Position numbers and translations under genes: made by a program. Below the pieces are notes generated by a model. That model worked only from the letters and a program-made list of their open reading frames with translations, was not told the DNA's origin and made no database searches. Below are positions 4,212 through 56,096 of a stretch of 64,000 nt of DNA, piece after piece. Location of the stretch: assembly GCA_050011775.1 (NCBI GenBank), contig JBEKIL010000012.1, positions 9,941 to 73,940 of the forward strand, given 5' to 3'. Origin of the DNA: Bacteroidota bacterium (GTDB lineage Bacteria > Bacteroidota > Ignavibacteria > UBA10030 > CAVZMI01). Every line of letters begins with the position of its first letter. The first letter of the stretch is position 1.

Positions 4212-5222
4212 ATGATCTCACAAGCAATGACTCTTCTTGCTCAGGGGAAAAATCTGCAGCAGGAAATCGCTTATCGTGCGATGATTCAGATCCTTTCCGG
4301 TGAAGCAACACCTGTGCAGATCGCCAGTTTTCTCACGGCTCTGCGAGTGAAGGGGGAAAGTGTGGAGGAGATCACAGCCTGTGCAAAGGTAATGCGCGAA
4401 AAAGTTACGCGTATCCAGTCGAAACATCCCGTTATTCTTGACACATGTGGGACAGGTGGAGATGGCGGCAATACATTTAATATTTCCACCGCGGCGGCAA
4501 TTGTTGCCGCAGGAGCCGGGGCAGTCGTAGCAAAACACGGGAACAGGGCAATCTCAAGTAAGTGCGGAAGCTCCGATGTCCTGAAAGCCCTTGGAGTTAA
4601 TGTCGATCAAACCACTCCCGAAAAAATGCAACGCTGCCTGGATGAGATCGGCATTGCGTTTCTATTTGCACCCCTCCTGCACGGTGCAATGAAATATGCG
4701 GCTCCCATCAGACGCGAACTGGGGTTCCGGACGATATTTAATATCCTCGGACCGCTCACAAATCCGGCCGGAGCGACACGACAGCTTATCGGTGTGTACG
4801 AAGCATCATTAATACGACCGATTGCGGATGTTTTACTCAATCTCGGGGTCGAACATGCATTGGTTGTTCACGGCGCAGGCGGTTTTGATGAAATATCGAC
4901 GCTCGGAGCCACGAAAGTCAATGAAATCAAGGATGGAAAAATACTCAGTTATGAAATCAATCCGGAGGAATTCGGTTTCGAAGTTCCAAGGCTTCACGAT
5001 CTCCTTGGCGGTGATGCCGAGCAGAATGCGCATATTCTTCTTAAGATTTTTCAAGGAGAACGGGGACCCTGTCGGGATATCACCGTCCTGAACTCCGGTG
5101 CCGCATTGATGGTCACGGGACTGGCATCAACCATAAAAGAGGGTATTCAACGTGCGCAATCGGCAATTGATGATGGAAGCGCATTGAAGAAACTTGATCA
5201 ACTCCGTGAACATGCAAAATAA
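4212..5222 (+). CDS. trpD: anthranilate phosphoribosyltransferase
   Basis: GTGGDG motif, NISTAAAIV, and KHGNRA(I/V)SS motif typical of TrpD. Confidence 0.9.
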   Translation: MISQAMTLLAQGKNLQQEIAYRAMIQILSGEATPVQIASFLTALRVKGESVEEITACAKVMREKVTRIQSKHPVILDTCGTGGDGGNTFNISTAAAIVAAGAGAVVAKHGNRAISSKCGSSDVLKALGVNVDQTTPEKMQRCLDEIGIAFLFAPLLHGAMKYAAPIRRELGFRTIFNILGPLTNPAGATRQLIGVYEASLIRPIADVLLNLGVEHALVVHGAGGFDEISTLGATKVNEIKDGKILSYEINPEEFGFEVPRLHDLLGGDAEQNAHILLKIFQGERGPCRDITVLNSGAALMVTGLASTIKEGIQRAQSAIDDGSALKKLDQLREHAK

Positions 5223-14863: not shown

Positions 14864-15438
14864 ATATCGGCCTCTTTGGCGGCAGTTTTAATCCGCCGCA
14901 TAACGGACATCTGCTCCTCGCAGAGACAGTACGGGAACAATTCAATCTCAGTACTATATTTTTCATTCCGTCATATATTCCTCCCCATAAACAACTCGAG
15001 CACCTTGCCCCTGGAAAAGACCGTCTCGCGATGGTCGAATGCGCTATTTCAGGAAACAGGCATTTTAAATGCTCGGATATCGAGATTCGGAAGAGGGGAA
15101 CATCGTACACCATTCAAACAGTTACGGAGTTTGAACAACGTTATCCCAACAGTGAATTATTCCTCATTATCGGCATTGATAATCTTATAGATTTTAAATT
15201 ATGGAAATTGCAAGAAGAATTACTGACGAAGACGACGCTCATCGTATGCGAACGTCCCGGATTCCGCCGCGATGATGTTCCGCGTGATCTTCTACGCTAT
15301 GCAAATTTTGTGTCGGTAATGCTGATCGGGATATCGTCAAGTGATATTCGGTTGAGGGTAAAAACGGGTAAATCGATCCGCTACTTCGTTCCTGAATCTG
15401 TGGCTGAGTATATACGCTCCAACCGGTTATATCTGTAA
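14860..15438 (+). CDS. nadD: nicotinate-nucleotide adenylyltransferase
   Basis: GGSFNPPHNGH (HxGH) nucleotidyltransferase motif and SSSDIR motif. Confidence 0.9.
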   Translation: MNIGLFGGSFNPPHNGHLLLAETVREQFNLSTIFFIPSYIPPHKQLEHLAPGKDRLAMVECAISGNRHFKCSDIEIRKRGTSYTIQTVTEFEQRYPNSELFLIIGIDNLIDFKLWKLQEELLTKTTLIVCERPGFRRDDVPRDLLRYANFVSVMLIGISSSDIRLRVKTGKSIRYFVPESVAEYIRSNRLYL

Positions 15439-15558: not shown

Positions 15559-16366
15559 ATGGATCGCTTTAAAGGTATCTATCGTATCGAATCCATCCGT
15601 CTTGCAGGTTGGGATTATGGTTCGACCCCTCGACAAGCTCAGGGCAGGCAAGCTCACCACAAGTGGTATGCCGGGTTGGTATTTTGTCACCATCTGTACT
15701 AAAAACAGGGTAGAATTGTTCGGAGATATTGTGGATGGGGAAATGATCCGGAATGAGATTGGAGAGATAGCACATCAAATGTTTAAAGAAATCCCGACAC
15801 ATTACAAAGATGTCAGATTGGATGATTTTATTATAATGCCGAATCATGTACATGGAATAATTGTGTTGGGAAATAAGTATAATCATGGATTGTCGAATAG
15901 TCGGGGAGAAAGTAGAGACAGATTGCGGGATAGGTGGGTGGATAAATGTAGAGAAAGATGGGGATATAAAAGGGGAAATGAAGGGGAAAATAATTTAGGA
16001 GGTGAGTGGAAAGATGAGTGGGGAGACGCAACGTCTCCCCACATAATAAGGATAGAATGATGATCTCCCTACATGGTGAGGACAGAATGATGATATGGTG
16101 CAGAAAAAAAGAGAGTCTTTCTAAATGGAAAATTGGATTTTGAAATGTCCGAAAAACCGGAAAACTATTTCATGTCAGCAATATCCCCCAAAGGTGGATC
16201 ATTGGGTGCGATTGTACGGTCATTTAAATCTGCCGTTACAAATTATATACATGCGGATGGATTTCGCGATTTCGCTTGGCAATCCCGATTCTACGATCAC
16301 ATTATTCGAAGTGAGAAAAGACTTAACATCATTCGGAGATACATTAGAAATAATCCAAAGCGGTGA
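15559..16366 (+). pseudogene. disrupted REP-associated tyrosine transposase (RAYT / IS200-like Y1 HuH transposase); N-terminus in one frame, HuH core shifted +1, C-terminal catalytic-Tyr segment separated by a ~260-bp insert containing stop codons
   Basis: Fragments SIRLAGWDYGS (frame 1). WYFVTICTKNR...MPNHVHGIIV (HuH, frame 2, ORF 15602..16060). GSLGAIVRSFKSAV...FAWQSRFYDHIIR...IRRYIRNNPKRW (ORF 16133..16366). Together these reproduce the RAYT/IS200 TnpA motif order but are not contiguous. Confidence 0.6.
15890..16150. repeat. purine-rich (GA-rich on + strand) insertion inside the RAYT gene; contains perfect 21-bp palindrome GGGGAGACGCAACGTCTCCCC (16019-16039) and a two-copy direct repeat AGGA(T/C)AGAATGATGAT
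   Basis: read directly from the sequence; the segment separates the HuH and Tyr motifs and introduces in-frame stops. Confidence 0.5.
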
Positions 16367-39793: not shown

Positions 39794-39964
39794 CTATTAC
39801 CTTCGTTTTTAAAAAGATCAGTAAGAAAAGGAACAATGAAAATCTTTTTCATAGCGGAGAGAGTGGGATTCTCCGCCGCATTGGATTGAGCGATGGAGGC
39901 GGATCAGCCTCACCGATTTATAATGCGTGGCTGAGAACCCACGGTTAATATTCATCCGCTATCG

Positions 39965-40052
39965 CGGAAGGGGTGGGATTTGAACCCACGTGACGCTTGT
40001 GACGCCAACTCGCTTTCCAGGCGAGCCGATTCGACCGCTCTCGCACCCTTCC
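39965..40052 (-). tRNA. tRNA-Ser (anticodon GGA), type II
   Basis: reverse complement folds: acceptor GGAAGGG/CCCTTCC, anticodon stem CTCGC/GCGAG with loop CTGGAAA, long variable arm, T-arm GTGGG-TTCAAAT-CCCAC. Confidence 0.8.
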
Positions 40053-40479
40053 AATTTTTCTCGAAATATCCACTCAATTTATTAACTCACACGCTCTCCA
40101 GGCGTGCCATCCCGTCCCGATGTCAACGGGACGGGACACTCCTGCATCTCTCCGTTTAATACTCGCTATCTTTTCTTTAAGATTTTATCAAGCCAGAAGC
40201 GACCCGCACCACTCTTCAAGTACCTTTCTCTTTTACGTGCTTCAGATATCGTTGTAAATTCTTCCTGATGTATTAAAACCCAGGGGATTCCGCGACTAGT
40301 GAATGGTGTTTTTCCATGATTATGTTGATAGAGCCGTTGAGAAATTTCATTAATCCTTTGAAAAAGCTGTTTTTCAGTGAATAATTTTTATAAATATACT
40401 AACTCTCATCAGGAAAAGCAATTCCTTGCTTTTTCTTGCACTTTTTCGTAGTATCATTTCGATAATACAATAATAGTTT

Positions 40480-44271: not shown

Positions 44272-44471
44272 ACTGCTACCGCCTTTCTTCTTCTCTATAT
44301 TTCATACCCGTTCTCATTGCAGCATACGGCACAATTTCGAACGGATATCTGCTCTATCGATATCCGGACTTTATTTTATACATTCACACTTTTCCGTCCC
44401 ATTTTAACGAAATGGAAGTCGATTTGGGCTAGCCGAACGAAGTCCCGTGTGCAATTCGCGGGACGTAATTT

Positions 44472-44810
44472 GGCGACTGACTGCGCTCCTCCCCGGAGCT
44501 TCGTCAGTCAGGCTGATAAAGAGGGCCTGCCAAACGAAGCCTTGGCGTAGTTTGGCGACTGACCACGCTTCTACCGGAGCTTCGTCAGTCAATAATTGAT
44601 TTTTACCTGCTTGACGAAGTCCCATATGTTTCTCGTGGGACGCAGTCAAGCGACTGACTACGCTCCTCTCGGAGCTTCGTCAGTCAGGCTGATAAAGAGG
44701 GCCTGCCAAACGAAGCCTTAGCGTAGTTTGGCGACTGACTACGCTCCTCCCGGAGCTTCGTCAGTCAGGCTGATAAAGAGGGCCTGCCAAACGAAGCCTT
44801 GGCGTAGTTT
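44472..44810. repeat. array of 81-bp structured tandem repeats (three full copies, one half copy, interrupted by a 58-bp GTCCCA...TGGGAC hairpin spacer). Each unit contains two imperfect palindromes, GACTGAC...GTCAGTC and GCCAAAC...GTTTGGC
   Basis: copies at 44472-44552, 44553-44590 (half), 44649-44729, 44730-44810; >90% identical. Confidence 0.85.
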
Positions 44811-44826
44811 GGCGGAGGGGCAGGGA
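44811..44826 (-). repeat. 16-nt direct repeat of the 3' end of tRNA-Ser(CGA) (GGCGGAGGGGCAGGGA = CCA + discriminator + acceptor + part of the T-stem, bottom-strand sense)
   Basis: identical to 45537-45552. Confidence 0.8.
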
Positions 44827-44857
44827 CCGACTACGTCCCGTTTCCACCTACGTTCGC

Positions 44858-45142
44858 CTACAGCGAACTTCGGTGGACAGACCGCGGGACTTCGTCGGTT
44901 AAAATTCTTTTTTTTAATATTGCTTTTCCAGATCCTGTCTTTAAATATTTCTCCAATTCTCTCGCCTTTGATTCTGATTTCACTGCAACATAAGCTGATA
45001 TTTCTAAAGGTCGATATGCTTTGGTCGACTGAACAACACCATTATTATGTTCTAAGACTCGTCGATCCAAATTATTCGTTGATCCTATATAAATAAATCC
45101 CTTTCTGATATTTCTCAGAATATATACTTTCCAAATTAACAT
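44858..45142 (-). CDS. GIY-YIG nuclease superfamily protein, YhbQ/UPF0213-like (94 aa)
   Basis: KGFIYIGSTNNLDRRVLEHNNG matches the GIY...YIG...R...E...N core of the GIY-YIG domain; its C-terminal ~13 codons run into a 70-bp palindrome. Confidence 0.7.
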   Translation of the reverse strand: MLIWKVYILRNIRKGFIYIGSTNNLDRRVLEHNNGVVQSTKAYRPLEISAYVAVKSESKARELEKYLKTGSGKAILKKRILTDEVPRSVHRSSL

Positions 45143-45296
45143 AGCTTGGTCCTATCTCTTGAGGGGGCTTTAATAATAAGAACGAAAAGAGGTTACATAT
45201 GAATGGGGTCGACTACGTTCCGTTTCACGGAACTTCGTCGACCAAGGCCTGCGTAACGAAGTTCCATCCCGTTGTTTCGGGATGGGACGCAGTCAT

Positions 45297-45538
45297 GCGA
45301 CTGACTGCGCTCCTCCCGGAGCTTCGTCAGTCAGGCTGATAAAGAGGGCCTGCCAAACGAAGCCTTGGCGCAGTTTGGCGACTGACTACGCTCCTCCCGG
45401 AGCTTCGTCAGTCAGGCTATAAAGAGGGCCTGCCAAACGAAGCCTTGGCGCAGTTTGGCGACTGACTGCGCTCCTCCCGGAGCTTCGTCAGTCAGGCTGA
45501 TAAAGAGGGCCTGCCAAACGAAGCCTTGGCGTAGTTTG
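45297..45538. repeat. second array of the same 81-bp repeat (three tandem copies) abutting the 3' end of tRNA-Ser(CGA)
   Basis: copies 45297-45377, 45378-45457 (1-bp deletion), 45458-45538. Confidence 0.85.
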
Positions 45539-45626
45539 GCGGAGGGGCAGGGATTCGAACCCTGGGTACTCAGAAGAGTACACCGGTTTTCGAGACCGGC
45601 CTAATCGACCACTCTAGCACCCCTCC
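45537..45626 (-). tRNA. tRNA-Ser (anticodon CGA), type II, CCA encoded
   Basis: reverse complement: acceptor GGAGGGG/CCCCTCC, anticodon stem CCGGT/ACCGG with loop CTCGAAA, variable hairpin GTACTC-TTCT-GAGTAC, T-arm CAGGG-TTCGAAT-CCCTG, then G-CCA. Confidence 0.8.
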
Positions 45627-46179
45627 ATTGAAAAAGGATATATAAATATATTACTTACACTTCCGAAAAACAAGTAATATAACAGCTCGGATTTCCCATA
45701 TTAGACTTTTTTTAAATTCATACCCTGCAAAAGGAACTTCACACGTATTTAATTCTGTTATTTATGATAATGGGGATCTGCGGCTCTTAAGCGCTCAGGG
45801 TATTGTCCGCGAACTTCACATTGGAGACTTTCGGACGAATTATGATGCACAGCTTGAAAACCACCAACATTTTATCTGTACTCGATGGCATTCGATTCTT
45901 GATCTTGAGACTGTCAAAGGGTGGAATAAAGATCAGTATATTGAACGAAAATATAAGTGCAGCATTCTCTCACATTGGGTAAATTTTTTGGCATCTGTTA
46001 TGTCTGTAAGATAGAATCTCGAACGTCTGACTGTTCAGCGACCATAAAAAGAAAACGGCAAAAAGACAAGGAGCAAACTATCTTGAAAGGGAGGTTTTTT
46101 TTCCATATGTTTGGATTATATACTCGCTTCATGGACTCAATGCCATATCTATCACACATCATCTATAGCGAGGTATACA

Positions 46180-53267: not shown

Positions 53268-56096
53268 ATGAATCCCGGCCCAGGTTACTATAATCCCAAT
53301 CGGCGTCTTCCTGTTATCATCATTGTTTCTGTTATCATTGTGGTCACCGGCGTGACAGGATGTTCGGTTTTTTCTCCGATTGGTGACTTCATCAGCCAGC
53401 GGTATGAAAATACCGTTGCATACTTTAACACATATTACAATGCATCAACGGCATTTAACGATGCAGAAAACGAAGTAATACAACAACAACAGACTCTTCG
53501 TGCGAAAGACCAGCCGATCAAATTGGGAGAAATATCATCGACTGCAAAGCAGAAATTTGATATAAGCATTGAGAAACTATCGCGATTGCTCACCTTCTAT
53601 CCAACAAGTAAATGGGTCGATCGATCTCTCGTCATGATCGGGAAAGCATATTACTATGAAGGTAATATTGTTCGTGCAGAGCATAAATTTCGTGAGTTGA
53701 TTACTACAATACCATCGAGTGATTATGTGAATACGGCGAAGCTCTGGTTAGGACGTACACTGGATGCAGCGAATAAATTCCAGAATGCTCAAAAAGAACT
53801 TGTGGACCTAATTCCCCGTGCGTATGAAAATGGAGAAAGAAATATCGGAGGAGAAGCCGGACTGCTTCTCGGTCAGATATGCCTCAAGCTTGATGACAGC
53901 AGCGGGGCATTATCGGCTTTTCAGACAGTGATAGATCAATCGCACGATGACGCTCTAAAAGCTCAGGCTCAACTCTCCATCGCCGAGATCCTTGCCGAAA
54001 ACGGTGAAAAGGAAGATGTCTTTAAGGCTTTCGCCAGGGTACGTGATTTCAATGCAGAGCTTGTGACCGAATATAAGGCACGCTTAAGGTTTGCACAATA
54101 TATGGTAAAAATTGGTCGATACGATGATGCGATATCCGAGTTGCAGTTTCTTCTCGACCATCCTGATTACAGCGAATACACTGCGCAAATAAAATATTCA
54201 CAGGCATATGCATTCCATAAAAAAGGGGATATCACAGAAGCTTGGGAGCGGTATGTAGAAATCGATTCGCTCTATTCTCGCAGCGATGTAGCAGCACAAA
54301 GTTACTTCCAACGGGGGTTGATACAACAAAAAGATTCGGGAAACTATCGGACGGCAATGGCGATGTTTGAAAAGGCGCGTACTGAATATCCGCAATCTCC
54401 AATCACACAAAAGGCAACTGTATATGCCGAGAGTATGAAGCAGTATGTCCAGCTCCGAGCCAGGATTGCTCGCTGCGACTCGCTTCTGAGACATTATTCG
54501 GAAAAACCTGATAGCACACACAAAGATACTGTGGCCGTAGACACTGCCAAAAATAAGAATAAGACAATAAAAGAGTTTGAAAATCCGGAGACAGCAATAG
54601 ATTCTTTGAAGATAAAAACAGTCAAAGCCGCTGAGATGACCGCTGTCGAGGAAAACAAGAATACGAAAGAAACGGACAGTACTAATGTATTGAAAGACTC
54701 AATTGTTGTGAAAAAAGATACGACCAAAATAACGACAAAGGCGTTAGAAAATCCGGAGACAGCAGTGGATTCTTTGAAGATAAAAACAATTAAAGCAGCA
54801 GGAATGGCTGCTGTCGGGGAGATCAGAAATACGAAAGAAACGGACAGTTCTCATGCATTGATAGATTCAACTTTAATTAAAAAAGATACGACCAGGACAA
54901 CAACTAAAATATTAAAAGGTCCGGAGTCAGTAGTAGATTCTTTGAAGATGAAGACAGCCAAAGCAGCAGGGCTGGCCGCCGTCCGGGGAATCAGGAATAC
55001 GAAAGAAATGGACAGTACACGTGTATTAAGAGATTCAATTGTAGTGAAAAAAGATACAACCAAGACAACAAAGGCAGCTGTCCAGGATTCCATAAAGGTA
55101 CTTGGTGACAGGGTTGCAGCACTGTACGAGCTTGGATCATTGCTCTATTTACAGCTTGACGAACCCGATTCGGCAATGCAGATTTTAAAGGATGTAATAA
55201 GTAAGTCTCCGCCGGATGATATCGCTGCGGGTTCTCTCTTTACCATCGGGCAAATCTATCTCACAGCATTCAAGAATCGCAAACAGACGGCAGATTCACT
55301 CTCGGACAGTATTCTTGTGAAATATCCGACATCAAAATACGCGCAGGAAATTCGGCGTCAGCGCGGGCTGCCGCTCCTTGAGATATCCGCGGAAGAAGAA
55401 CCTCATACACTTTTTCTGGAAGCAGAAAAATCCCTGATTAAAAATGATAGTGAAACTACATTACATCTGTACAAGAAAATTATCGAGAAGCATCCTAAAA
55501 GCGAAGAGGCATTAAAAGCCCGGTATGCCATCGGATGGTTTTATGAAAACACCTACAAGAATATCGACAGCGCTATCACATGGTATAGTACTCTGGTAAA
55601 AGATTTTCCTACATCGGCATATGCGGCGAAAATTAAGGGAAAAATTGATGAAGTTGAGGCGGCGAAAAAGAAGCAGGATACAACCGCTGCGACTCAGAAA
55701 CGATCGCAAGTAACAACTCCATCGCAAGCACCTGCGCAAACACATGCACAGGGTGATACTGCTCGAACAACCGTCAAAGATACACTCGCACGGCGTCAGG
55801 CTGTTCCGAAACAGATTGACTCGGTAACAACTGCAACTAAAGATTCACTGTTAAAACGTCCGGCGATACGCCGGCAGTTCGATGGTGATGAAGATCAGCT
55901 CAATCGTCCTGGGGAAAAAAAGGGACAACTCAATGTGCTTTCAAAGCCGACAGGGAATATTAACATTGAAAAAGACACGAATAAAACTGTCCTTCCTGAT
56001 TCACTTTTGAAAAAAGTATCAAAAACTATCGATGAAGAGATTAAATTCAATCAGTCAAAAAAGGATAGTATACAACCAGATACATTAAAACATTAG
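53268..56096 (+). CDS. large TPR-repeat lipoprotein with an internal 3x tandem 57-aa repeat and a Ser/Thr/Gln-rich C-terminal tail
   Basis: lipobox VTGC, multiple TPR-like helices, repeats at 54580-55090. Confidence 0.55.
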   Translation: MNPGPGYYNPNRRLPVIIIVSVIIVVTGVTGCSVFSPIGDFISQRYENTVAYFNTYYNASTAFNDAENEVIQQQQTLRAKDQPIKLGEISSTAKQKFDISIEKLSRLLTFYPTSKWVDRSLVMIGKAYYYEGNIVRAEHKFRELITTIPSSDYVNTAKLWLGRTLDAANKFQNAQKELVDLIPRAYENGERNIGGEAGLLLGQICLKLDDSSGALSAFQTVIDQSHDDALKAQAQLSIAEILAENGEKEDVFKAFARVRDFNAELVTEYKARLRFAQYMVKIGRYDDAISELQFLLDHPDYSEYTAQIKYSQAYAFHKKGDITEAWERYVEIDSLYSRSDVAAQSYFQRGLIQQKDSGNYRTAMAMFEKARTEYPQSPITQKATVYAESMKQYVQLRARIARCDSLLRHYSEKPDSTHKDTVAVDTAKNKNKTIKEFENPETAIDSLKIKTVKAAEMTAVEENKNTKETDSTNVLKDSIVVKKDTTKITTKALENPETAVDSLKIKTIKAAGMAAVGEIRNTKETDSSHALIDSTLIKKDTTRTTTKILKGPESVVDSLKMKTAKAAGLAAVRGIRNTKEMDSTRVLRDSIVVKKDTTKTTKAAVQDSIKVLGDRVAALYELGSLLYLQLDEPDSAMQILKDVISKSPPDDIAAGSLFTIGQIYLTAFKNRKQTADSLSDSILVKYPTSKYAQEIRRQRGLPLLEISAEEEPHTLFLEAEKSLIKNDSETTLHLYKKIIEKHPKSEEALKARYAIGWFYENTYKNIDSAITWYSTLVKDFPTSAYAAKIKGKIDEVEAAKKKQDTTAATQKRSQVTTPSQAPAQTHAQGDTARTTVKDTLARRQAVPKQIDSVTTATKDSLLKRPAIRRQFDGDEDQLNRPGEKKGQLNVLSKPTGNINIEKDTNKTVLPDSLLKKVSKTIDEEIKFNQSKKDSIQPDTLKH
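54580..55090 (+). repeat. intragenic tandem repeat, ~171-bp period x3 (ENPETA(I/V)DSLKIKT(V/I)KAA...KKDTTK units)
   Basis: repeat starts at 54580, 54750, 54920 read directly from the sequence. Confidence 0.75.

Follow-up and report, generated by a model that had tools for sequence, protein, structure and literature searches.

The region described here lies in a 64,000-nucleotide (nt) stretch of contig JBEKIL010000012.1, referred to below as the window, from a Bacteroidota bacterium of the Ignavibacteria lineage. On the minus strand of this stretch, a tRNA-Ser(CGA) gene is followed by a small gene encoding a GIY-YIG nuclease of 94 amino acids (aa), and copies of an 81-bp double-hairpin repeat are found on both sides of the nuclease gene, all of them 3' of the tRNA (Table 1). 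The 44432–45542 region as a whole is a mosaic of about 19 hairpins, encoded on both strands, that share one sequence signature, and it forms a G+C-rich island (up to 60%) amid surroundings of 31–40% G+C. The arrays very likely belong to a family of elements in which a tRNA-Ser gene, a lone GIY-YIG gene and signature hairpins occur together.

The initial annotation of this DNA had placed three head-to-tail copies of the repeat at the 3' end of tRNA-Ser(CGA) and about 3.5 copies on the left side of the nuclease gene. Tandem Repeats Finder (TRF) recovered the former as array B, with a consensus that is essentially the unit first noted, and the latter count also holds, being made up of the two units of array A, one further full unit and a half unit in a series that is interrupted by a spacer and by hairpin H3. 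The six full units are 80–82 bp long, begin at positions 44473, 44650, 44731, 45297, 45378 and 45458, and show pairwise identities of 93–99% in alignment, in agreement with the >90% originally given. The differences among them are mostly C/T toggles of the TGCG/TACG type, restricted to one position per hairpin, which is the Y of the motif CGYAG. Read in the direction of the tRNA, each unit is composed of hairpin A (H2, with its signature on the plus strand), the linker GCAGGCCCTCTTTATCAGCC, which contains GCAGGC, and hairpin G (H1, with its signature on the minus strand), and the two orientations alternate in every unit. H2 begins within the GCCA of the tRNA. Both palindromes described for the unit are real according to the hairpin scan and DNA folding. 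A CRISPR array was rejected, as it had been from the start, since the units run head-to-tail with no unique spacers.

Table 1. Features of the tRNA-Ser(CGA)/GIY-YIG locus, numbered from the first letter of the window and listed in the direction of the tRNA. L001 is the orthologous locus and L092 a related one.
Feature	Position	Strand	Description
tRNA-Ser(CGA) gene	45537..45626	-	Intact, CCA encoded; ARAGORN; Rfam tRNA, 54 bits
Array B	45297..45541	-	Three 80–81-bp units; TRF period 81 bp, 3.0 copies, 96% matches
H4, signature hairpin	45250..45299	+	10-bp inner stem, one outer-stem mismatch; tgcgtaaCGAAG...CGCAGtcatgcg; missing in L001
H5, signature hairpin	45207..45243	-	ggtcgaCGAAGttccgt-GAA-acggaaCGTAGtcgacc; DNA fold -14.3 kcal/mol, z = -5.7; missing in L001
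Leader, from hairpins to GIY-YIG start codon	45143..45206	-	Kept in L001; blastn 45201-44731 = L001 9943-10411, 93%
GIY-YIG nuclease gene	44858..45142	-	94 aa, single domain, Slx1/UPF0213-like; Pfam PF01541, E = 6e-16
Gene-terminal hairpin G	44826..44899	-	accgaCGAAGtcccg...cgggaCGTAGtcggt; DNA fold -24.4 kcal/mol, z = -6.5; encodes ...LTDEVPRSVHRSSL and the stop codon
Nested signature hairpin	44843-44877	-	In the loop of hairpin G
Displaced copy of the last 17 nt of tRNA-Ser	44810..44826	-	TCCCTGCCCCTCCGCCA; abuts hairpin G directly
Array A	44650..44814	-	Two 81-bp units (A + linker + G); TRF 2.0 copies, 97%
H3, signature hairpin	44608..44652	+	tgcttgaCGAAGtcccat...gtgggaCGCAGtcaagcg; shared with L001 and L092
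AT-rich spacer	44591-44607		17 nt; precedes H3 and, with it, parts the older array portion from the two-copy block
Older, more diverged array part	44473..44590	-	Full 82-nt unit (44473-44554) and half unit (44555-44590, degenerate H1 only)
H6, signature-like hairpin	44432..44474	+	gccgaaCGAAGtcccgtg...cgcgggaCGTAAtttggc; variant 3' motif CGTAA; weak fold, z = -1.9; distal end of the mosaic

The 81-mer is not the fundamental unit that it was first taken to be. That role falls to the single hairpin with its conserved CGAAG/CGYAG internal loop, two of which, the end hairpins of an element, are combined in each 81-mer. Each signature hairpin is built of an outer stem (5–8 bp), CGAAG, an inner stem (2–10 bp) that begins with two pyrimidines, a loop, the second arm of the inner stem, CG(T/C)AG and the second arm of the outer stem. 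In the folded strand, the pentamers CGAAG and CGYAG are opposed as a symmetric internal loop (G.A, A.T or A.C, A.G). The stems differ yet compensate, so that the two arms covary, with the outer/inner combinations tgactga/ctcc, tgccaaa/cc, tgcttga/tccca, ggtcga/ttccg, accga/tcccg and tccac/ttcgc. Besides the two palindromes of the 81-mer, six hairpins with other stems are present in the window (H3–H6 and the nested pair at the 3' end of the gene). The scan returned zero signature hairpins in the 64-kb window outside 44432–45542, the opposite of the random scatter that the initial annotation had set against itself. Folded as single-stranded DNA, the individual hairpins adopt the structures as drawn, at -9 to -24 kcal/mol and z from -3.6 to -6.5 except for H6 (-1.9). 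For the lone 81-nt unit, the minimum-energy structure differs from two simple hairpins, since H1 and H2 have arms that can also pair with each other.

Within the 3' pentamer (CGTAG or CGCAG), the middle base is hypervariable among near-identical units, both in the window and in the arrays of an unrelated population (loci L102–L105). Across 146 hairpins it is T in 105 and C in 41, and when folded it faces the middle A of CGAAG (A.T or A.C). Deamination of the unpaired C and a mere lack of constraint are candidate causes of this toggling.

Relatives of the nuclease gene were collected by a scan of one genome per species, which returned 513, and the analysis was carried out on the best-scoring 80 loci, which are not a random sample. 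The hairpin signature was defined on the window and then applied to the 418 kb of these loci. They derive from at least six phyla and include Ignavibacteriota, Bacteroidota (Chitinophagales and Cytophagales), Marinimicrobia, Fidelibacterota, Terriglobia, the candidate phyla radiation (CPR) lineages Peribacteria and Absconditabacteria, Dehalococcoidales and Victivallis, with 55–65% identity of the GIY-YIG family among distant phyla. Linkage to a tRNA could be assessed in the 74 loci in which 400 nt or more of sequence precede the gene, and 68 of these have a tRNA-Ser upstream on the same strand at a median gap of 130 nt, while one locus has another tRNA. The anticodons of the linked tRNA-Ser genes are gct (30), cga (13), gga (13) and tga (12). 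The tie of the repeats to the tRNA and the GIY-YIG gene that the initial annotation proposed extends to the family: of the 176 signature hairpins, 173 are located at most 700 nt from the start of a GIY-YIG gene, and a hairpin begins no more than 8 nt from the tRNA 3' end in 49 of 73 tRNA-Ser genes versus none of 13 other tRNA genes. Block shuffles gave no hairpins at all, and permuted 5-mer signatures gave 0–7.

Two hairpin types are distinguished by position and orientation. The signature of the tRNA-proximal A-type is antisense to the tRNA and the gene in all 82 cases, and that of the gene-terminal G-type is sense in all 64, with 26 and 28 distinct outer stems, respectively. The outer stem of hairpin A takes in the terminal CCGC of the tRNA, and GCAGG(C) follows hairpin A in 27 of 57 loci. 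In the window, the first hairpin A (45511–45542) draws part of its outer stem from the last 4–5 nt of tRNA-Ser.

The displaced tRNA copy in the window forms, together with the adjoining units, a 135-nt direct repeat (44692–44826 and 45419–45553, 98% identity). The order at this junction, with hairpin G followed by the 17-nt tRNA remnant and then hairpin A, matches the junction in 56 related loci, in which the tRNA 3' end is repeated directly after hairpin G over 9–87 nt, typically about 15 nt. The junction consensus reads ...GGTTCGAA followed by TCCCTCCCTCTCCGC in the tRNA, and ...CGTAGTCGG followed by TCCCTCCCTCTCCGC at the right end. This repeated stretch begins where the T-loop meets the T-stem (±2 nt) and, in simple cases, ends exactly at ...CCGC (position 74). 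In about half of the 56 loci an unrelated trailer lies beyond the remnant, which indicates that hairpin A is part of the insert; the rest carry a second copy of hairpin A, with repeats of up to 87 nt. Between the tRNA-end repeats the GIY-YIG gene is always the sole open reading frame (ORF), and no integrase or recombinase is encoded there. Judged from these junctions, the tRNA-end duplication is a putative insertion scar of the att-like type. The suggestion that the arrays are connected with an insertion or duplication event is supported, as the duplicated block takes in the tRNA 3' end.

The catalytic motifs of the 94-aa protein are intact, with Y7, Y18, G20, R28 and E64 invariant and H32 and N33 nearly invariant in an alignment of 29 sequences. 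The AlphaFold (AF2) model has a predicted local distance difference test (pLDDT) score of 88, and its last ~13 residues form a disordered C-terminal tail. Among solved structures, the protein comes closest to the nuclease domain of Slx1, a structure-specific endonuclease, followed by HIGLE and UPF0213/BH0048. The ten top Foldseek hits feature Slx1, HIGLE and 1zg2, with I-TevI and UvrC at E > 0.3, and a profile search against the PDB identified 1zg2 at 1.2e-5 and 6seh at 4.2e-5. No NCBIfam model attains its cutoff for the protein. Its relatives are all single-domain proteins of 67–130 aa, and the subfamily comprises about 1,979 clusters at 50% identity (E <= 1e-10).

The 3' end of the gene and hairpin G are the same DNA. 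For the conserved C-terminus KKRILTDE(A/V) the coding sequence is ACCGACGAAG, in which the codons ACC GAC GAA G of the LTDE tail are the 5' arm of the hairpin, accgaCGAAG, and the variable tails that follow LTDE(A/V) (PRSGT, PRGA, ASQA and others) are the translated hairpin. The stop codon lies within CGTAG in 30 of the 80 loci, and a TAG stop is used in 54. The nested hairpin of the window lengthens the GIY-YIG ORF by nine codons. Such nesting of one signature hairpin within the loop of another is also seen in L018, L030 and L037, which suggests that the hairpin loops are themselves sites of insertion or duplication.

This coding overlap also bears on the origin of the 81-mer. The linker and H1 read in frame as ...FISLTDEAPGGA*, with H1 itself translated as LTDEAPGGA*. 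This reading matches the C-termini TDEAPRGA, TDEAPKGA and ...ILTDEAPRGA* of other family members, unlike the ...TDEVPRS... of the resident gene. Because the unit is made up of hairpin A, linker and hairpin G, and because H1 holds an in-frame C-terminus, the 81-bp unit represents, on this evidence, the two ends of a family member from which the gene has been lost. It has the make-up of a miniature inverted-repeat transposable element (MITE), with two element ends and the internal gene deleted; mobility of the unit itself is conjecture.

The arrays are read by ORF prediction as coding sequence, with spurious long ORFs of 41–122 aa across those of the window (44404–44649 on the minus strand, 44728–45096 and 45282–45422 on the plus strand). 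On the contigs of the Ignavibacteria population P0102 (L102–L105), array ORFs of 106–148 aa are called as genes, and misannotation as hypothetical proteins is likely.

Comparable arrays have formed elsewhere in the family. On an unrelated contig of higher G+C content (L093), a 98-nt tandem unit consists of hairpin G, the tRNA remnant CCTCTCCGC, hairpin A and a linker, and reads MQLTDEAP*. In P0102 a 63-nt unit, composed of the tail of hairpin A, a linker and a G-type hairpin, is repeated between tRNA-Ser(TGA) and the gene. Its copy number differs between assemblies of this one population, with 4, 4, 5 or 6 copies across samples and identical proteins, though these are short-read counts to be taken with caution. 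Whole cassettes are found in tandem at nine loci, and the decayed copy was the tRNA-distal one in all six cases in which decay was seen; truncated or pseudogenised GIY-YIG copies are common. The ortholog of the window locus (L001/L012) encodes a protein that is 95% identical, has flanks of about 94% identity and lies on a contig on which the arrays are fully assembled. Its overall plan is like that of the window apart from the lack of H4 and H5 and a different gene-distal set of hairpins, and a distal flank motif that follows the second array in the window follows the first in L001. The hairpin modules turn over faster than their flanks. Short-read contigs end inside hairpin arrays at L092 (end at 4542), L093 (both ends) and L106–L108 (starts), so the element family is probably under-represented, and its copy numbers under-estimated, in public assemblies.

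A second GIY-YIG subfamily, designated GIY2 and marked by a PW motif, is likewise linked to tRNA-Ser. Its member in the window (40196–40345, minus strand), beside tRNA-Ser(GGA) (39964–40052, minus strand), is a 5'-truncated pseudogene of which residues 23–72 remain (92% identity), and L001 has an intact 72-aa gene just upstream of tRNA-Ser(GGA). There, the GIY2 gene and the tRNA are flanked by direct repeats of ~70 nt (15100–15170 and 15675–15745) that end in a string like a tRNA 3' end; the repeats are not recognisable as tRNA fragments by Rfam. GIY2 genes lie directly upstream of tRNA-Ser in L017, L019 and L036 and downstream in L016, L029, L047 and L056, and CGAAG/CGYAG hairpins are absent beside them. 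The gene next to tRNA-Ser(CGA) on its other side (45772–46083, plus strand) is Fur-like and matches L001 9066–9386 at ~94% in DNA, with 63% protein identity in one frame and a second frame that also matches; this mismatch points to frameshifts in one of the two assemblies, from either a pseudogene or indel errors. A further tandem repeat of the window, with a period of 168 bp (54564–55071, 3.0 copies, 79% matches), lies in a 942-aa ORF (53268–56096, plus strand) and presumably represents protein-coding internal repeats, separate from the hairpin arrays.

From its left end, a complete element of the family is composed of hairpin A, with an antisense signature and an outer stem that pairs with the CCGC of the tRNA, a GCAGGC box, a leader of 60–100 nt, the gene for an 80–94-aa single-domain GIY-YIG nuclease of the Slx1/UPF0213 lineage, and the right-end hairpin G, which has its signature on the coding strand and encodes the ...LTDE(A/V).. 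tail and usually a TAG stop. It is bracketed by the intact tRNA-Ser and the displaced copy of the last ~15 nt of that tRNA. The arrays of the window are probably gene-less derivatives of such an element, which would be small (about 0.4 kb), selfish and specific to tRNA-Ser, with a minimal Slx1-like nuclease as its driver. Mobility of the element, past or present, through the action of this nuclease on DNA hairpins is a clearly less secure proposal than membership of the family, about as likely as not or slightly more so.

Under this proposal, the nuclease would be expressed through read-through from the tRNA promoter and would recognise and nick the folded DNA hairpins. Since the mismatches are kept on one strand only, a folded strand is argued to be the substrate rather than a duplex palindrome. 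The resulting breaks might promote copying of the cassette into empty tRNA-Ser alleles, with homology supplied by the body of the tRNA and by the 15-nt remnant; alternatively, the cassette might be inserted with a 15-bp target duplication. Breaks could also stimulate unequal repair or slippage between repeated hairpins and in this way give rise to tandem arrays.

Several observations weigh against this account. In the array units of the window, G and A are separated by a tRNA-end segment of just ~5 nt instead of 15, which makes unequal exchange or slippage a more probable origin of the arrays than repeated canonical insertions. The protein has no separate DNA-binding domain, the model being one GIY-YIG fold with a disordered tail, while known homing endonucleases have one. 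No polymorphism between occupied and empty states of one orthologous tRNA-Ser site was found; a search for an empty site through the 157-aa flanking gene returned only the L001-type variant, on a contig whose assembly breaks off within the array. Within one genome, paralogs located at separate tRNA-Ser genes share only 73–78% identity, so transposition between them need not be recent. The populations P0069 and P0094, which have a single hairpin A and no array, are invariant across 8–10 samples with no alternative contexts; as the arrays of the window and L001, and those of P0102, do differ, arrays appear to be unstable and single insertions stable. The distribution could to a large extent be ancient and due to vertical descent. 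In six Cytophagales/Cyclobacteriaceae loci (L032, L039, L042, L048, L073 and L074) a tRNA-Ser(GCT)–GIY-YIG–tRNA-Arg(TCT)–tRNA-Pro(TGG) cluster is conserved, with no tRNA-Ser remnant detectable in any of the six, and this looks like an old, fixed insertion within a tRNA operon. The test of G.T versus A.C wobbles for the folding strand was not significant once the positions overlapping the tRNA were excluded. Finally, all sequences are metagenome-assembled genomes (MAGs) or metagenome contigs, in which a few phylum assignments may be binning errors, and array copy numbers in short-read assemblies may be unreliable.

A number of these points would also be expected of an immobile cassette, in which the GIY-YIG protein is a domesticated host nuclease, anciently fixed and vertically inherited, that acts at its own hairpins, for example in autoregulation or in the processing of cruciforms or R-loops at highly transcribed tRNA-Ser genes, and in which the arrays arose by replication slippage only. 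The unchanged single-copy loci, the Cytophagales synteny and the age of the within-genome paralogs agree with such a role, as do the arrays, most of which occupy the interval from the tRNA to the gene start, a place from which binding sites could regulate expression. This explanation is nonetheless considered unlikely. It does not account for the precise ~15-nt tRNA-end duplication that encloses the cassette in 56 loci and in many of them precedes an unrelated trailer, for tandem full cassettes with decaying distal copies, or for a family spread over distant phyla at 55–65% identity, and the truncated and pseudogenised copies are unexpected for a needed host function.

Somewhat less likely still is a role of the hairpins as RNA, in processing, stability, termination or as protein-bound mRNA sites on a tRNA-Ser/GIY-YIG co-transcript, the arrays then being expanded structures of the 5' untranslated region or the trailer. 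The gene does follow the tRNA closely on the same strand, and no sigma-70-like promoter was found for it. The mRNA would carry G-type hairpins in sense orientation at its 3' end, and in the P0102 array also in its 5' leader, and the hairpin region folds strongly as RNA (z = -8.6). Against this, the A-type signature is antisense without exception, so that the sense RNA would show a CUACG/CUUCG loop and pyrimidine mismatches, and the 3' end of the tRNA itself would be tied up in hairpin A. At the hairpins Rfam 15 gave no match, with only the tRNA found at gathering thresholds and at E <= 1. A T-run (5 or more T within the following 8 nt) follows only 2 of the 176 signature hairpins; intrinsic terminators were rejected on this ground, the terminator matches in the window being a weak alternative stem within each unit. 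An RNA role would also leave the duplicated tRNA 3' end unexplained, and the A/G inversion and the tRNA-end scar favour DNA as the active form.

The two remaining explanations are both highly improbable. The initial annotation had likened the repeats to repetitive extragenic palindromes (REPs) and bacterial interspersed mosaic elements (BIMEs), and an ordinary dispersed family of this kind, mobilised by a REP-associated tyrosine transposase (RAYT) and located here by chance, would share the short imperfect palindromes, the BIME-like alternation of orientation and a GTAG-like tetranucleotide within CGTAG; it is already largely refuted by the confinement of the hairpins in the window and among the related loci (all but 3 of 176 are found no further than 700 nt from the start of a GIY-YIG gene), by the restriction of the H1 sequence to one contig of the metagenome collection searched, by a conserved motif that is an internal loop and not a 5' GTAG head, and by a partner gene that is GIY-YIG rather than RAYT. 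The direct repeat of a tRNA 3' end around an insert is the classical tRNA-att architecture, so the duplication could in principle represent attL/attR of an integrase-mediated genomic island or a prophage remnant with incidental hairpins; an integrase island, phage or defence system was rejected, as the insert is only ~0.4–0.7 kb with the GIY-YIG gene as its sole ORF in all 80 loci, no integrase is present, no relatives of the gene were found in viral contigs, and PHROG and PADLOC gave no match.

The element resembles several known systems and lacks a defining feature of each of three of them, the REP/BIME-RAYT system (REPtron), the GIY-YIG homing cassette and the tRNA-targeted integrative element. 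Like a REPtron, it has short imperfect palindromes with a small conserved motif and stems that vary between families, clusters of alternating orientation as in BIMEs, hairpins that flank one linked nuclease-type gene, and a likely recognition as folded single strand. REPs, in contrast, occupy tens to hundreds of intergenic sites and bear a 5' GTAG/GGAG head, whereas the hairpins described here occur only at tRNA-Ser/GIY-YIG loci and have an internal CGNAG/CGNAG loop on both arms. The flanked gene is a PF01541 GIY-YIG gene in all 80 loci and not a RAYT (Y1/HUH), a RAYT elsewhere in the genome not having been searched for, and the cassette is bracketed by the tRNA 3'-end duplication.

With free-standing GIY-YIG homing endonucleases (the T4 Seg proteins and the I-TevI lineage), the element shares a GIY-YIG catalytic domain with the conserved Tyr, Tyr, Arg and Glu and the form of a small selfish cassette beside a highly conserved gene that it leaves undisrupted. 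The nuclease domain of I-TevI prefers a CNNNG cleavage motif (PMC5009752, PMC4065259), and motifs of this type are found at the presumed site of action here as well, since the facing pentamers CGAAG and CGYAG both fit CNNNG; this resemblance may be taken as a lead only. The proteins of the family differ in being only 80–94 aa, with no linker or DNA-binding domain and a fold nearer to Slx1 than to I-TevI, and the element is chromosomal in bacteria, was not found in viral contigs, and has hairpin ends and a tRNA-end duplication. Homing is conjectural in its case.

Slx1 is a structure-specific endonuclease whose substrates are branched and stem-loop DNA, and its activity on stem-loops would fit a hairpin substrate for the family. 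Slx1 and UPF0213 proteins (YhbQ, BH0048) are the best sequence and structure matches to the 94-aa protein. The similarity is remote (E about 1e-5, 26–34% identity), no RING domain or Slx4 partner is present, and a tRNA-Ser linkage or hairpin signature of UPF0213 is unreported in the literature searched. Stand-alone prokaryotic Slx1-like domains, with role unknown, were recorded in a phylogenomic survey of 2006 (PMC1564403).

As with tRNA-targeting integrative elements, insertion is at the tRNA 3' end, the tRNA is restored and a displaced partial copy remains. The target duplications of casposons are 14–15 bp, and the ~15-nt repeat is comparable in length. Unlike either group, the element encodes no integrase or Cas1, is at least 10-fold smaller, has hairpin ends and targets tRNA-Ser only. 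Mobile GC-clusters and double-hairpin elements of fungal mitochondria are short G+C-rich palindromic modules in A+T-rich DNA that proliferate locally, often near tRNA genes and GIY-YIG ORFs, and a link to the nuclease is unproven there too. These elements are organellar and have other sequences, with no defined tRNA-Ser junction or coding overlap (compare PMC7218506). No description of the bacterial association of GIY-YIG gene, tRNA-Ser and hairpins was found in PMC1564403 or in a search of the openly accessible full-text literature, and the element is apparently undescribed so far.

A tentative and more far-reaching possibility is that the family represents a new class of mobile element. An Slx1-like GIY-YIG nuclease of ~85 aa would then mobilise its own cassette through hairpin ends with a CGNAG/CGNAG loop, independently of any DNA-binding domain, transposase or integrase, and the cassette would insert at the T-loop/T-stem boundary of tRNA-Ser with duplication of ~15 bp, while gene-less pairs of ends such as the 81-mers would be its MITE- or BIME-like satellites. 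If the nuclease does act on the hairpins, no smaller self-contained site-specific element would be known to the author, and the protein would be a compact nuclease, specific for both structure and sequence, that has a defined DNA hairpin target of roughly 28 nt.

The family explains recurrent trouble in assembly and annotation, as contigs break at the arrays and spurious ORFs of 80–150 aa are called across them. It also identifies tRNA-Ser genes as a conserved hotspot across the Fibrobacteres–Chlorobi–Bacteroidetes (FCB) group and beyond, which bears on the evolution of tRNA genes and on island finders that rely on tRNA-end duplications. The stand-alone minimal GIY-YIG proteins were regarded in the 2006 survey of the superfamily as the ancestral form of the fold (PMC1564403). 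For this very large group (about 2,000 clusters at 50% identity in the present subfamily alone), which is without an assigned function, the association with tRNA-Ser and signature hairpins provides a concrete and testable substrate and context.

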